Source: Dehalococcoidia bacterium
Lineage (GTDB): Bacteria > Chloroflexota > Dehalococcoidia > Lucifugimonadales > UBA3495
Assembly (NCBI GenBank): GCA_965243185.1
Contig: OZ251531.1
Span: 2,214,532 to 2,278,531 of the forward strand
Length of the DNA stretch: 64,000 nt
Direction of reading: 5' to 3'
Part shown: positions 1-35,369 of the stretch, piece by piece
How positions within the stretch are numbered: position 1 is the first letter of the stretch
Layout: every line of letters begins with the position of its first letter
Program-made: the position numbers and the translations under genes
The notes under the pieces: model-generated
The model's input: only the letters and a program-made list of their open reading frames with translations
The model's database searches: none
Told to the model about the DNA's origin: nothing

Positions 1-53
1 TCAGTTTTACGACATTAGCGAAAACCTGAAAACTGCTACAACAGAACGGAACC
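1..53 (-). repeat. B-type repeat unit, copy B0 (inverted, cut by window edge)
   Basis: Reverse complement of 1-53 (ggttccgttctgttgtagcagttttcaggttttcgctaatgtcgtaaaactga) aligns by eye at about 44/53 positions with 1229-1281. Confidence 0.75.
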
Positions 54-159
54 ATTGAGGATTTTTAGAGGTTACTGGAATTCCCGTTTTTTGCGGGAGG
101 AGGCAGCCGGCCGCTATTCCGGGTTTCCCCCTTCACCGGAATAACCCCAACCGGCCCGC

Positions 160-948
160 CTACAGCCCCAAAATGTTCTCCAAGCCCACCGCCAACCCCG
201 GCTTTTTCACCACTTCCCGAATACAGCGCATCACCCCCGGCATATAGCAGTCCCGGCTCAAAGTGTCGTGGCGCAGGGCTATTGTCTGCCCGGCAGCCCC
301 CATAATAACCTCGTGATGCGCGCTGCGGCCGGGCATTCGGATGCTGTGGATAGTTACGCCGTTATACTCCCCGCCCCGCGTATCCGGCAAATTCTCCCGT
401 TCCGGGTAGTTGCGGGTAAAACTGCGCTGGTCGCCGATGCCCTTGGCCAAAGCCATCGCAAATCCGGAAGGCGCGTCAATCTTGGCTTCATGATGGGCTT
501 CCACAATGTCCACATAGTCGAAAAACGGCGCCGCCTGCTCGACCAGTTTTTTCAGGATAACCGCCCCCAAGGCAAAGTTGGGCGCGACGATAACCCCAAT
601 GCCCCGTTCCTTGGCCAAAGCGTCCAGTCGGGCCAAATCGGCGTCCGTCAGTCCGCTGACCCCCAACACCAGGTTGACCCCCCGGGCCGCGGCCACCGGC
701 GCCGCCGCCATCGCAACGGCGGCATTGGTAAAATCCACCAGAACCCCCGGGCCGGTCTGCTCCAGTACCTGCTCCAAGTTGGTGGACAACGGAACTTCCC
801 CGCCATCAGGCAAAGCCAGCCCATCGCCCCGTTCCCGGCGGCAGACCCCGCCCACCAGAACCAAATCCTCCTCCCGGCCCAGGGCGGCCACTGTTTCCAT
901 CCCCATTTTCCCGGTTGCCCCGTTGATTGCCACCCGTATTGACGCCAT
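160..948 (-). CDS. dapB: 4-hydroxy-tetrahydrodipicolinate reductase
   Basis: 262-aa ORF with N-terminal NAD(P)-binding INGATGKMG and the diagnostic VEAHHEAKIDAPSG motif. Confidence 0.9.
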   Translation of the reverse strand: MASIRVAINGATGKMGMETVAALGREEDLVLVGGVCRRERGDGLALPDGGEVPLSTNLEQVLEQTGPGVLVDFTNAAVAMAAAPVAAARGVNLVLGVSGLTDADLARLDALAKERGIGVIVAPNFALGAVILKKLVEQAAPFFDYVDIVEAHHEAKIDAPSGFAMALAKGIGDQRSFTRNYPERENLPDTRGGEYNGVTIHSIRMPGRSAHHEVIMGAAGQTIALRHDTLSRDCYMPGVMRCIREVVKKPGLAVGLENILGL

Positions 949-1070
949 TGCAATCCCCCTTGCGCCCGCCGCAGCCGGCAGACTGAATCGCCCGGTATCT
1001 TACCACCGCCCGCCGGCCGCTGCCATTCCCTGCCGGGAGCAACGCCAAGGCAATTGCATCCTAATTATAT

Positions 1071-1079
1071 TGGTATAAT
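1071..1079 (+). promoter_or_regulatory. Extended -10 promoter (TGGTATAAT), with TTGCAT upstream
   Basis: tggtataat ends 1 nt before element A1. A TTGCAT box lies upstream at suboptimal (14 nt) spacing. Confidence 0.45.
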
Positions 1080-1080
1080 T

Positions 1081-1220
1081 GGTATTCTCAACACGGGTTG
1101 GCGTGAGGTAAAACAAGGAAAAGTCGCCCCGACCAAGAAAGGGATTCCTATTGATTCGCTGGTGCTGCTTTGGCTCCGACAAGGCCGTTTTTAGCAGTGC
1201 CAACCCGTGTTGAGAATACC
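1081..1220 (+). repeat. A-type element copy A1: ~140 nt with 22-bp perfect terminal inverted repeats (candidate structured RNA or MITE)
   Basis: GGTATTCTCAACACGGGTTGGC ... GCCAACCCGTGTTGAGAATACC. A second copy at 34955-35093 is ~85-90% identical by eye. Confidence 0.85.
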
Positions 1221-1228
1221 CTGCCGCC

Positions 1229-1306
1229 GGTTCCGTTTCGTTTTAGCAGTTTTTAACTTTTCGCTAATATCGTAAAGTTGACTAACTGCTAAAACAGAAC
1301 GGAACC
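1229..1306 (+). repeat. B-type unit copy B1, forming a 78-nt extended hairpin
   Basis: ggttccgtttcgttttagcag (1229-1249) pairs with ctgctaaaacagaacggaacc (1286-1306) at 20/21 positions. An inner AACTTT/AAAGTT stem is present. Confidence 0.8.
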
Positions 1307-1321
1307 CTGCCGCCGCCGTCC

Positions 1322-5025: not shown

Positions 5026-5957
5026 TGGTGGAGCTAATCGTTGACCGCCCCGTGGACCTGGAAGCCAGCTTGCTGGGCGGGCAAGCCCATCGTTGGCGGC
5101 CGGAAACGCCGGACGAAAACCCGGAAACGGAACTGGCGGAAAGCGGGATAATCTGGTACTCTGGCGTCCTCCGCGGCAACTTCATCCGCATCCGCCAAAT
5201 TACTCCCCAACGAATGGAGTTCCATTCTGCCCCCTGGCCGGAGGCAGCCGTTATCCCGCTGCTGCAAAGCTACTTCCGTATGGATGATGACCTCGACAGC
5301 ATCCACGCCCAAATCTGCCAGGATGAACGGGTGGCGGCGATGGCAGACCGCTACCCCGGCTTGCGGATTCTACGGCAAGAGCCGTGGGAGTGTCTGGTGG
5401 CCTACATCTGCTCCGCCAATTCCAACATCAAGCGCATCCATCAGGTATTGGAAAATATCGCCGGGGCTTGCGGCGACCCCATTGACCTGAAGGGCATCCG
5501 TCGCTATGCTTTTCCTAGGCCGGCTGACTTGGCGGCCGCCGGGGAAGCGGAATTGCGCCGCTTGGGGCTGGGGTTTCGCGCTCCCTATGTGGACCGGGCG
5601 GCTCAGGAAGTAGCCAGCGGCGACTTGGACTTGAACGCCCTAGTACGCCTGCCTTATGCCCCGGCTAAAGAACGCTTGCTCGAGTGTTACGGCATCGGCA
5701 GCAAAATCGCCGATTGCATCGCCGTCTTTTCTCTGGAAAAGTTGGAAGCCTTTCCCATCGATGTCTGGGTGCGGCGGGCTTTGGGCGAATGGTACTTCCC
5801 CGGTCAAAAGACGCCCCCGGACCGGGAACTGTTGGCTTGGGCGCAAAGCTACTTCGGCCCCTACGCCGGCTACGCCCAGCAGTACCTCTTTCACGGGCGG
5901 CGTCTGGAAAAACAAACGGTGGAATCCCCGGCAGCGTACCGGGAATCGGGAGGATAG
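5025..5957 (+). CDS. ogg: 8-oxoguanine DNA glycosylase (OGG1 type), paralog 1, canonical
   Basis: OGG_N motif GGQAHRWR; LRQEPWECL; HhH-GPD motif YGIGSKIADC...FPIDVW with Lys and Asp retained. The start overlaps the dinG stop (TGATG). Confidence 0.85.
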   Translation: MVELIVDRPVDLEASLLGGQAHRWRPETPDENPETELAESGIIWYSGVLRGNFIRIRQITPQRMEFHSAPWPEAAVIPLLQSYFRMDDDLDSIHAQICQDERVAAMADRYPGLRILRQEPWECLVAYICSANSNIKRIHQVLENIAGACGDPIDLKGIRRYAFPRPADLAAAGEAELRRLGLGFRAPYVDRAAQEVASGDLDLNALVRLPYAPAKERLLECYGIGSKIADCIAVFSLEKLEAFPIDVWVRRALGEWYFPGQKTPPDRELLAWAQSYFGPYAGYAQQYLFHGRRLEKQTVESPAAYRESGG

Positions 5958-5962
5958 ACCTA

Positions 5963-6832
5963 ATGGAACTGGATACCCGCGGCCAACCCTTCGACTTGGA
6001 ATTCACCCTGTTCAGCGGCCAGGCTTTCCGCTGGGCTCGGGAAAAGGATACCCCGGATAGCTGGTTCTCCGGCGTAGTGCAGGGCAACCTGATCAGAATA
6101 CGCCAGACCGATCTGGGCATCGAATTCCGCAGCACCCTGCCCGAAGGAATGACCCAATACCACCTGCAAAACTACTTCCGAATGGGGGACGATGTAGCCG
6201 CCATTTATGCGGAAATCTGCCACGACTGGCGGGTGGAGATGATGGTGCGGGAATACTGGGGAATGCGGCTGCTGCGGCAGGAACCCTGGGAGTGTCTGAT
6301 TGCTCACCTGTGTTCCCCGGACAACAGCGTGGCCCAAGTCAGTCAAATTGTCGAGCGGCTGTCGGAAACCCTGGGCAACGCTATATCCCTGGACAGCGAA
6401 ACCCGCTATTCCTTTCCCACTCCGGAGCGGCTGCTTGAAGCCGGCCCGGAGGGTCTGGAGCGGGCGCATCTGGGGCCGGAGCGGGCGACCCATCTTTACC
6501 AGGCCGCCCAAGTGGTAGCCGACGGTTCTCTGGACTTGTACGCTTTGGGGGATATTCCTTACATCCACGCCAAAAACCGCCTGCTCCGCTACCCCGGCGT
6601 CAACCCCCAAATCGCCGACGCCGTCCTGCTCTTTTCCCTCGACAAGTTCGAGGCTTTCCCCATCGACCGGACGGCGGCCCGGGCTTTGGCGGAAAAATAC
6701 TTCCCCGGCCAGGAGCCCCCGGAACAGGAGGAACTGCCCGACTGGACCGAACTGTTTCAGGAACACTTTGGCCCATACGCCGGCTATGCCGGGCAGTTTC
6801 TCTTTCACGGCATCCGGATGGGGCAGTTTTAG
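5963..6832 (+). CDS. OGG1-like glycosylase paralog 2, lacking the catalytic Lys
   Basis: SGQAFRWAR and LRQEPWECL are present, but the HhH motif reads GVNPQIADA (Lys to Gln, Cys to Ala). GGGAGGA RBS upstream of ATG 5963. Confidence 0.75.
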   Translation: MELDTRGQPFDLEFTLFSGQAFRWAREKDTPDSWFSGVVQGNLIRIRQTDLGIEFRSTLPEGMTQYHLQNYFRMGDDVAAIYAEICHDWRVEMMVREYWGMRLLRQEPWECLIAHLCSPDNSVAQVSQIVERLSETLGNAISLDSETRYSFPTPERLLEAGPEGLERAHLGPERATHLYQAAQVVADGSLDLYALGDIPYIHAKNRLLRYPGVNPQIADAVLLFSLDKFEAFPIDRTAARALAEKYFPGQEPPEQEELPDWTELFQEHFGPYAGYAGQFLFHGIRMGQF

Positions 6833-6850
6833 GGCAGGCGCGGGGTTGCT

Positions 6851-7708
6851 ATGGAACTGGAATATGACGCCGGCCAGCCGCTGGACTTGAACATATCCCT
6901 GCGGATGGGGCAAGCCTTTCGCTGGAAAGCCGCCGCCGATGGCTGGTTCAGCGGCGTAGTGCGCGGCCAGTTCATCCAAATCCGCAAGGTCCGCGACGGG
7001 CTGCTGGAGTTTCAAGCCGCCCCCGGCCCGGACGCCAAGGCCGCGGCCATCATCAGCGATTACCTGCGGTTGGATGAGGATATTACCGCCATCTATGTCG
7101 ATCTCAGTAAGAGGGACGGGAAAATTGCGGAACTGGTCGCGAAATACCGGGGTTTGCGGATTTTGCGGCAAGAGCCGTGGGAGTGTTTGGTATCATACAT
7201 CCTGTCCGCCCAATCGCCGATACCCCGCATTGAAAGGAATGTTAAGGCGTTGGCCGACCAATTCGGCGACCGTATCGTACCGGGAATGTCGGCATTTCCT
7301 ACGCCGCGGCAACTGGCAGAAGTAAGCCAAGACGAAATTTCCCAAGTGCTGGTCGGATTCAAGCGATACGCCGTGAGCGTATCAGGAGCGGCTCGGGAAG
7401 TTGCGGGCGAGCGGCTGGACTTGGATAGCTTGGCAAAGTTGGATTATGAACCAGCCAAGCAACGGTTAAAGCAGTGTTATGGGGTCGGCGATAAAGTTGC
7501 CGACTGTGTGCTGCTGTTTTCACTGGATAAACCTGAAGCATTTCCGATTGACCGGCACATCGGCCGAGCCTTGTCTGATTACTACTTCCCAAGAGTAAAA
7601 ACGCCGTCTGACGCCAAACTCCGGGATTGGGCGCAAAATCACTTTGGCCGCTACGCCGGCTATGCCGGGCAGTTCCTGTTTTACGAGGAAAGGCCGGTGC
7701 GGAACTAG
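6851..7708 (+). CDS. OGG1-like glycosylase paralog 3
   Basis: MGQAFRWK, LRQEPWECL and YGVGDKVADC...FPIDRH, with Lys and Asp retained. Confidence 0.8.
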   Translation: MELEYDAGQPLDLNISLRMGQAFRWKAAADGWFSGVVRGQFIQIRKVRDGLLEFQAAPGPDAKAAAIISDYLRLDEDITAIYVDLSKRDGKIAELVAKYRGLRILRQEPWECLVSYILSAQSPIPRIERNVKALADQFGDRIVPGMSAFPTPRQLAEVSQDEISQVLVGFKRYAVSVSGAAREVAGERLDLDSLAKLDYEPAKQRLKQCYGVGDKVADCVLLFSLDKPEAFPIDRHIGRALSDYYFPRVKTPSDAKLRDWAQNHFGRYAGYAGQFLFYEERPVRN

Positions 7709-10752: not shown

Positions 10753-10855
10753 TAATGGACGATCGCTAACTCTTGAATCCGGCTGCCCCAAAGCCGGTTG
10801 GCTAATTCTTGGGGATGTGCTACAATGCCCCTAACTTCTGTAGGAGGTGACGCTG

Positions 10856-18377: not shown

Positions 18378-18521
18378 CCCTTTTCCGGTATCGGCATACC
18401 CGCCTTGGGCAGTGTATAATATCCAGTGGCGCGGCGCGCTGCCCGGTGTTGCCCGGGCGTCCTGAAGCGCCGCAACCCGGGCCAATCTATCAAGAATCCA
18501 ACGGTTTCAAGGACGGTCTAA

Positions 18522-20930: not shown

Positions 20931-21009
20931 AAAAGCAATCGGCCGGCAAACCCGGGCAAACCAACGGAGTTTGCCACCGCCGCTGACCGGTGCATTACCC
21001 CTTCCCGGC

Positions 21010-21018
21010 TGGTATAAT
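21010..21018 (+). promoter_or_regulatory. Extended -10 promoter TGGTATAAT
   Basis: tggtataat lies 40 nt upstream of GTG 21058. Confidence 0.4.
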
Positions 21019-34795: not shown

Positions 34796-34954
34796 CGCCC
34801 CTGCCCCAATCGGCTTTTGCCCACCCGATGGCCTTGGTAGCACCGGGTCAATATCTACTACTCCGGCCTTTCCCTGAACCCTCCGGCTTGGAAAAGCCCT
34901 TGCGCCCCGCCATTCTAGCACACCCGCCCAACTTGTGCATCACCCCGGGCAACT

Positions 34955-35093
34955 GGTATTCTCAACACGGGTTGGCATAAGTTAAAACAGGGAAAAATCG
35001 CCCCGACCAAGAAGGGGATTCCTATTGATTCTCTGACACTGCTTCGGCTCCGACAAGTCCGTTTTTAGCAGTGCCAGCCCGTGTTGAGAACAC
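34955..35093 (+). repeat. A-type element copy A2
   Basis: Same 22-nt arms as A1, with one G:U and one mismatch, and a conserved interior (CGCCCCGACCAAGAA, GGATTCCTATTGATTC, GGCTCCGACAAG, CCGTTTTTAGCAGTGCC). Confidence 0.85.
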
Positions 35094-35107
35094 ACGAATC
35101 GTGGCGG

Positions 35108-35136
35108 CATTGACCGGAATTGCCAGATAATCTATA
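35108..35136 (+). promoter_or_regulatory. sigma70-type promoter TTGACC-N17-TATATT
   Basis: ttgacc ggaattgccagataatc tatatt, located between A2 and B2. Confidence 0.45.
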
Positions 35137-35181
35137 TTTATTAGCCAGCTTTAGAGCCGGCTATTTTATGCGTTTCGGAGT

Positions 35182-35236
35182 GGATTCCGTTTGCTTTTAG
35201 GGCATATTCAACTTAACGACAAAATCGTAAAGTTGA
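35182..35236 (+). repeat. B-type unit copy B2 (degenerate)
   Basis: ggattccgtttgcttttagggcatattcaacttaacgacaaaatcgtaaagttgaa is ~70% identical to B1 by eye, with the same inner CAACTT/AAGTTG stem. Confidence 0.6.
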
Positions 35237-35369
35237 ACGCAGATTGTTGCTTTGCAATACCAAGCCCGGTTGCGCGGTAAAATCTGCCTTAACTAAAAAT
35301 GCTCTGAAAGCAAATGGAGACATCGCGGGGATTAAGGCACAGCGGCCGCCGGGCGGCAAGGAGCTATTG

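Follow-up and report, generated by a model that had tools for sequence, protein, structure and literature searches.

Insertion sequences (IS) of the IS6 family make 8-bp target duplications and give rise to cointegrates and inversions (PMC7986276). The family includes zinc-finger transposases of 340-350 aa, which in the same review come mostly from Clostridia, as well as members of 1.71-1.76 kb, and just two miniature transposable elements with inverted repeats (MITEs), of 227 and 336 bp, are catalogued in it (PMC7986276). Here we describe the B elements, a family of short palindromic repeats, in a 64,000-nt stretch of DNA from a Dehalococcoidia bacterium (the window; G000:C1:2214532-2278531), where two copies bracket dapB. 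B is very probably (probability about 0.85) a family of non-autonomous MITEs whose movement depends on an IS6/IS26-like DDE transposase acting in trans from elsewhere in the same genome. The window lies within G000, a 3.37-Mb single-contig genome that is 99.4% complete, and was compared with G001, a sister species with 92-95% nucleotide identity, and with a further genome, G002. Positions without a genome handle are those of the window or, where so stated, of G000.

Several features seen here are those of IS6 and IS26. B-type ends begin GGTTC.GT and occur with 8-bp target duplications, G000 encodes a DDE_Tnp_IS240 transposase of about 350 aa with an N-terminal zinc finger, as in IS6 clade h, and an IS of the 1.72-kb size class is present in the same genome. 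As with IS26, there is an apparent case of intramolecular replicative inversion in which the target was duplicated in reverse complement. Unlike the catalogued IS6 MITEs, however, the B elements are far smaller (78-100 bp), and among autonomous elements the best match is a 5-kb transposon with cargo rather than a simple IS. Its transposase falls just below the NCBI IS6 cut-off, and the host is reported as an uncultured member of the Dehalococcoidia, whereas the zinc-finger IS6 transposases in the review came mostly from Clostridia.

Two other groups of small elements invite comparison. Like TIMEs (miniature elements with inverted repeats, derived from Tn3), B would be a miniature two-end element that a replicative DDE transposase moves in trans, and genes lying between a pair of such elements can be moved by them. 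TIMEs have Tn3-type 38-bp ends, 5-bp duplications and a resolvase system, whereas B has IS6-type ends and 8-bp duplications. B also resembles the Correia elements of Neisseria and other bacterial MITEs in consisting of short palindromic intergenic repeats with terminal inverted repeats, and, like Correia elements, it gives long transcript hairpins and is scattered beside promoters and gene ends. In contrast to B, Correia elements are 100-155 bp long and duplicate TA, and no partner transposase is known for them; B makes 8-bp duplications, and a partner lineage can be identified for it within its own genome.

Structure and spread of the B elements

The window contains one complete B element, the larger part of a second and a relic of a third:

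B0, 1..53 (full element G000:2214507-2214584), no strand assigned: right-hand 53 nt of a 78-nt palindromic MITE
Left copy of the B1 target-site duplication, 1221..1228, no strand assigned: 8 bp, CTGCCGCC
B1, 1229..1306, no strand assigned: complete 78-nt palindromic MITE with arms GGTTCCGTTTCGTTTTAGCAG / CTGCTAAAACAGAACGGAACC
Right copy of the B1 target-site duplication, 1307..1314, no strand assigned: 8 bp, CTGCCGCC
B2, 35182..35236, plus strand: one-armed truncated relic with left arm GGATTCCGTTTGCTTTTAGGGCAT and an inner ATCGTAAAGTTGA block

The first-pass annotation, which was made from the letters of the window, had described these as three copies of a 53-nt unit, the first two in inverted orientation. 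The repeat is real, but the units are halves of 78-nt palindromes and the third copy is a weak relic. We searched for the 21-nt B arm as the pattern GGTTCCGTTYYGTTKTAGCAG, with the expectation taken from shuffled sequence, and obtained three matches in the window (33-53 minus, 1229-1249 plus and 1286-1306 minus) versus none in the shuffles. Positions 1-53 and 1229-1281 showed 83% complementarity over 53 nt, in keeping with the inverted orientation of B0 and B1, but this orientation concerns only the asymmetric loops of two palindromes. The hairpin that had been proposed at 1229-1306 was confirmed, as B1 forms a near-perfect 78-nt hairpin (DNA fold -23.8 kcal/mol, z = -7.9).

Extending the analysis to the left of the window, as had been advised, revealed that B0 starts 25 nt outside it; although cut by the window edge, B0 is itself a complete 78-nt palindromic hairpin. 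The distance from B0 to a tRNA-Pro(GGG) gene is 62 nt, and the flanks of B0 contain no target-site duplication. Its two arms are of different subfamilies (TGGGTGA on the tRNA-Pro side and TAGCAG on the dapB side), and its middle stem is mismatched. Because the arms belong to two subfamilies, this structure suggests that an exchange between two B copies formed B0. B2 has no right arm and its match to the family is weak (77% over 51 nt, E = 0.008). The inner block of B2 is shared with B1, and its arm equals the end of a 5,052-bp transposon, described below, at all 23 bases save one inserted A.

Across G000 the family is dispersed: about 11 of its copies have two arms, and another ~25 are solo arms. 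At least 12 B-family copies were present in G001. The elements measure 78-100 nt overall and comprise terminal inverted repeats of ~21-25 bp and a short loop, with no open reading frame. Subfamilies differ in their middle stems, which nevertheless stay self-complementary (TAGCAG/CTGCTA, TGGATGA/TCATCCA and GGGGTAC/GTACCCC). Perfect 8-bp direct duplications flank B1 and the G000 copies at 85530 and 1658105, and a further B copy, at G001:C5:1260916, has the 8-bp direct duplication GATTGGGG.

The distribution of B-type ends was surveyed in 201 genomes of the order, representing 103 genera, with the reversed pattern as a control. The end motif GGTTCCGTTYKSTTDTRG was found in 23 of these genomes (13 genera), often as inverted pairs of 70-100 nt, and the control gave a single match. 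The CTGTT subfamily, which includes B0 and B1, was seen only in G000 and G001.

Replicative inversion and candidate partner transposons

G001 contains two 100-nt B copies (C5:374237-374336 and 396216-396315) that are inverted relative to each other and separated by about 22 kb. Their left flanks, GGTTTAAG and CTTAAACC, are exact reverse complements of each other, and their right flanks are unrelated. In G000 the DNA found to the left of both copies is contiguous and joined at one intact CTTAAACC (2501924-2501931), an empty site where G001 is occupied. Read from this comparison of flanks, the pair shows an intramolecular replicative transposition that inverted 22 kb, since one split target abuts the inverted copies and its 8 bp are duplicated as the reverse complement. 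Such products are known for IS26 (PMC4471558, PMC7986276). We also considered recombination between two ordinary insertions at this pair, but this would give reverse-complement flanks on both sides, which were not seen. The same kind of transposition would explain why most B copies have no direct duplication.

The partner that best fits B is a 5,052-bp transposon (G000:2111176-2116227), whose 44-nt terminal repeats start GGTTCCGTTTGCTTTTAGGGCAT and are identical at 43/44 positions; it is flanked by the 8-bp duplication CCGGCTTT. B arms (GGTTCCGTT...TTTTAG) match these terminal repeats. The transposase of this element (G000:2111217-2112272) has 351 aa, with an N-terminal zinc ribbon followed by a DDE_Tnp_IS240 domain (PF13610, 69.7 bits; cut-off 27), and its best NCBIfam match is the IS6 model NF033587, with 121.7 bits over the full profile (cut-off 125). 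From its sequence and the ends of its element, we infer that this zinc-finger protein is the best candidate for moving B. In the proposed mechanism, the two inverted ends of ~21-25 bp with their short loop would be acted on in trans by an IS6-like transposase. Insertion duplicates 8 bp of the target, and at least one event was replicative and intramolecular and inverted DNA. The features by which a MITE is recognised were all found in B: terminal inverted repeats, a fixed-length duplication, dispersed copies with empty sites, and an autonomous element with matching ends. If this assignment is correct, B adds very small MITEs (78-100 bp) to the IS6 family. The pair in G001 is a clean natural case in which an element of 100 bp brought about a replicative inversion.

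A number of observations weigh against this assignment. A direct duplication was present at only 3 of the ~11 two-armed copies in G000, and a search for reverse-complement or cross-copy 8-mers among ~48 B-family flanks in that genome yielded none that was convincing. The candidate transposase scores 3 bits below the NCBI IS6 cut-off. In addition, the B1 arm agrees with the end of the 5,052-bp transposon at only 15/21 positions; the closer matches belong to other subfamilies (B2, the G000 copies at 93277 and 443665, and the inversion pair of G001), and the partner transposon proper to the CTGTT subfamily may be gone. Lastly, synteny in the genus is so fragmented that some repeats are expected to coincide with breaks by chance.

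Other elements with related features were present in G000. An IS of 1,724 bp, with ends GGTWCTGTAGCATTTTGCTGGGGG, has at least five full-length copies; 8-bp duplications were found at 4/4 copies checked, and its transposase, of 281 aa, scored 129.6 bits on the IS6 model, which is above the cut-off. More hairpin MITE families, with ends closer to those of the 1,724-bp IS, were noticed at L039:1207-1500 in G001 and at G000:C1:1658212-1658330. They include GGTTCCGTGGCATTTTGCTGGGGGG...CCCCCCAGCAAAATGCCACAGAACC and GGTACTGTCGCATTTGCTGGGTA...TACCCAGCAAATGCAACAGTACC, of which the second directly adjoins a B copy. A 1,950-bp element (G000:C1:3075071-3077020) has B-type ends and a duplication matching at 7/8 positions (CTCAAGTC/CTCAAGCC); its transposase is weakly Mutator/IS256-like (PF00872, 22 bits) and not IS6-like. 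The B copy at G000 position 230873 was considered as the end of an adjacent IS6-like remnant, but this was rejected, as the remnant IS ends at 230659. The cargo of the 5,052-bp transposon consists of an HNH endonuclease, an N6/N4 DNA methylase and a Bro-N protein. The transposon also encodes a 322-aa protein, family unassigned, whose C-terminus resembles that of the transposase.

Relocation of dapB and breaks in synteny

Between B0 and B1 the window holds dapB and a copy of a second small repeat, element A, of which another copy precedes B2:

dapB, 160..948, minus strand: 4-hydroxy-tetrahydrodipicolinate reductase, 262 aa (TIGR00036, 205 bits)
A1, 1081..1220, no strand assigned: 140-nt MITE with 22-bp perfect terminal inverted repeats
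A2, 34955..35093, no strand assigned: second window copy, 90% identical to A1, with 22-bp perfect terminal repeats

The dapB gene at 160-948 is the sole intact copy in G000. At G000:C1:1919194-1919520, directly after a membrane-protein gene, we found the last ~80 coding nt of dapB together with ancestral downstream DNA, and the downstream context of this remnant is that seen in G001 and G002. Because the 3' remnant keeps the ancestral context and the window copy is the one intact gene, the comparison indicates that dapB was relocated in the G000 lineage and that the remnant marks the place from which the gene disappeared once the window had gained a copy. In G001 and G002 the sequence on the left of B0, the segment with dapB and the sequence on the right of B1 occupy three separate places, and the synteny breaks of the segment fall at B0 and at A1/B1. 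In G001 the orthologue of the right flank of B1 begins at a single CTGCCGCC, and the right break lies between A1 and the duplication of B1. The first-pass annotation had called the geometry compatible with an invertible or formerly mobile segment. The lineage-specific, rearranged position of the segment, with junctions at B0 and A1/B1, agrees with past movement, but nothing shows an invertible switch.

The same transposition activity, or recombination between B copies, may have produced the breaks at B0 and A1/B1, and these breaks would have placed dapB between tRNA-Pro and a PHP-hydrolase gene. An attempt to reconstruct the path of the move from the junctions in G000, G001 and G002 found no simple model that fits. 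The junctions X|Y at G000:815851 and A1|B1 have 12 nt in common (CTGCCGCCGCCG).

Another reading is that B0-dapB-A1-B1 forms, or once formed, a transposon of compound type (pseudo-compound or translocatable-unit-like), with both B elements carrying dapB as one unit. IS6-family elements are known to build compound structures (PMC7986276), and the relocation of dapB, attested by the remnant at G000:1919194 in its G001/G002 context, together with the position of both new junctions at B0 and A1/B1, speaks for it. However, the B0...B1 block has no 8-bp duplication (its outer flanks are CCCGGCTC and CTGCCGCC) and B1, which has a direct duplication of its own, inserted alone. For these reasons a compound move is possible but not favoured, and we consider it rather unlikely. 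Several further points stand against it: in G001 both tRNA-Pro and dapB already have B-family arms next to them, the likeness of B0 to B1 is only 83%, and a right-hand break between A1 and the duplication of B1 points to A1 or to another event.

The association of B with rearranged sites extends beyond dapB. All B-family sites for which both flanks could be placed in G001 sit at synteny breaks, namely five other copies, B0, A1/B1 and A2/B2. As background, 40 kb of the window has five breaks between G000 and G001 (about one per 8 kb); A2/B2 accounts for one of these, and at another a B copy is present in G001. These breaks lie at 10781-10792, 18381-18395, 20979-21014, 27093 and 34941-35328, mostly in intergenic promoter regions, and G002 has the first two positions in common. 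A break every ~8 kb at 92-95% identity is unusually fine-scale shuffling for close relatives. B copies mark reshuffled sites in the genome, including the present site of dapB, and suggest why gene order in the genus is scrambled about every 8 kb, which bears on binning, synteny-based annotation and operon inference.

Element A, the IscB locus and other readings of B

Element A has a different parentage. Six full-length elements of ~840 bp in G000 have A ends and encode an InsA zinc finger followed by an InsB DDE domain in another frame; in NF033558, the IS1 model of NCBI, positions 1-78 and 87-199 are matched by these frames (67.3 and 58.6 bits). The ends of these IS1 elements read GGTATTCTCAACACGTGTTGGC, and the 8-bp duplication GGGCATTT flanks the copy at G000 position 712240. 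A1 has no target duplication of its own. Judged by these ends, A is a MITE of an IS1-family element, independent of B, and a parentage can now be assigned to both small repeat families of the window (IS1 for A and, very probably, IS6-like for B). A block of about 8-13 nt is common to A and B, and on this basis the opposite strand of either element had been said to carry an anti-repeat-like sequence. Full-length IS1 copies read GGATTTAGCCACGCCAAC there, and the A block TTTAGCAG corresponds to TTTAGCCAC in the parent IS. Because the A block descends from an IS1 end, we read the likeness as incidental and due to chance.

By eye, three full-length IS1 copies in G000 carry each other's target duplications (GTTGATTT at 1409777/1563636, GGCGTTTT at 1410614/2121590 and CGGGTTT at 2120756/1564470), a pattern that points to exchanges between IS1 copies as the source of inversions.

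G000 encodes one IscB (432 aa; NF040563, 378 bits) at 1311610-1312908, 900 kb from the B pair. Upstream of the gene are three good copies and one degenerate copy of GGCAGTCCCCGGCGGGCGTGGGGCAACC with a 61-nt period (array 1311174-1311303), an anti-repeat and about 260 nt of likely scaffold, and the whole region spans G000:C1:1311108-1312908. The array repeat is unrelated to B. A BLAST search of the four G000 spacers against G000 returned self-matches only, the best other match being a GC-rich 17-mer. The G001 orthologue (L077) is 89% identical, and its array consists of a degenerate first repeat and seven perfect ones; the spacers are entirely different from those of G000, and the leader and scaffold are conserved. 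This pattern suggests spacer turnover without known adaptation genes. CRISPR-associated IscB proteins were described by Altae-Tran et al. 2021 (cited in PMC12660989), and the G000 protein is of this type.

A solo B-family arm is located just upstream of the IscB leader in both G000 and G001. We considered the arm as a general feature of IscB loci and rejected this, as it is absent at the loci in G023, G003 and G044, which represent three other genera. We read it as one old neighbouring insertion. It is very unlikely that the arm bounding the IscB mini-array is a true transposon end, with IscB having left its IS200/605 vehicle to become cargo of an IS6-like transposon, in the way that HNH and methylase genes are carried by the 5-kb element. 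If that were true, the B hairpins would be miniature relatives of a new carrier for RNA-guided nucleases.

This locus bears on a reading of B as an orphaned relic of the type-II-CRISPR-like repeat/anti-repeat (tracr-like) kind, or as a pair of regulatory RNAs associated with an RNA-guided nuclease. The B unit starts GTTTTAG and has about 36-40 nt between its outer arms, for which the first-pass annotation had compared its core with a type II CRISPR repeat, and the IscB with its mini-array and adjacent B arm might seem to supply the nuclease. The likeness to a type II repeat/tracrRNA system ends with the GTTTTAG-like start and a complementary partner nearby, and that partner, the supposed anti-repeat, is the second terminal inverted repeat of the transposon itself. 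B has no periodicity, array, spacers or Cas9: a crude spaced-repeat scan of G000 gave about 20 short clusters, of which the IscB mini-array was the one looked at more closely and none lay at a B copy, and no array built from B was found in this genome. The advised genome-wide search for cas9, iscB and tnpB recovered the one IscB; in complete G000 the Cas9 model (TIGR01865) gave only HNH-domain matches of <=30 bits (cut-off 100), and Cas1 (PF01867) and TnpB had no match. The IscB repeat is not related to B, its spacers match nothing else in G000, the loci of other genera are without the arm, and the transposition of B is evident from its 8-bp target duplications and empty site. We regard a CRISPR-like origin as barely credible. 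Neither A nor B is related to CRISPR, and a false lead is thereby removed.

The palindromic character of B, its dispersed intergenic copies and the presence of IscB, usually an IS200/605 passenger, would also suit a REP/REPIN-type element (repetitive extragenic palindrome) or an IS200/IS605 palindrome-associated transposable element (PATE), moved on single-stranded hairpins by a Y1 (HUH) transposase. The Y1 TnpA/RAYT domain (Y1_Tnp, PF01797) had no match in the complete single contig of G000, however, and B differs from Y1 elements in duplicating 8 bp of its target and has ends that match those of DDE (IS6-like) elements. A Y1-driven origin is therefore exceedingly improbable. The earlier suggestion of a PATE/MITE module was right in its second half, with B a MITE of the DDE type, and wrong in its first. 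Co-option of the hairpins as RNA-level signals (terminators, stabilisers or processing sites) is compatible with a MITE origin, and it draws on the very stable stems, on the position of B0, which on the minus strand separates dapB from tRNA-Pro and lies 106 nt beyond the stop codon of dapB, and on three B copies that adjoin tRNA genes. We nonetheless think it unlikely, as the position and orientation of B relative to genes are inconsistent (B1 lies in a divergent promoter region), the stem is not followed by a T-run, and B sites are not conserved between the sister species. A scan of the whole window against Rfam at gathering thresholds was empty, and with permissive settings 1-1400 matched nothing but generic miRNA-hairpin models, at scores well under threshold. 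A MITE family mobilised by an IS6-like transposase remains our preferred reading of B.

Two other repeats were noted in passing. A repeat of ~320 nt (L040:3333-3650 in G002) has at least 50 copies in G000, with 75-80% identity. Within the window, 5143-7685 contains three paralogous genes in tandem, which recur every ~900 nt and share blocks of 64-89% nucleotide identity.

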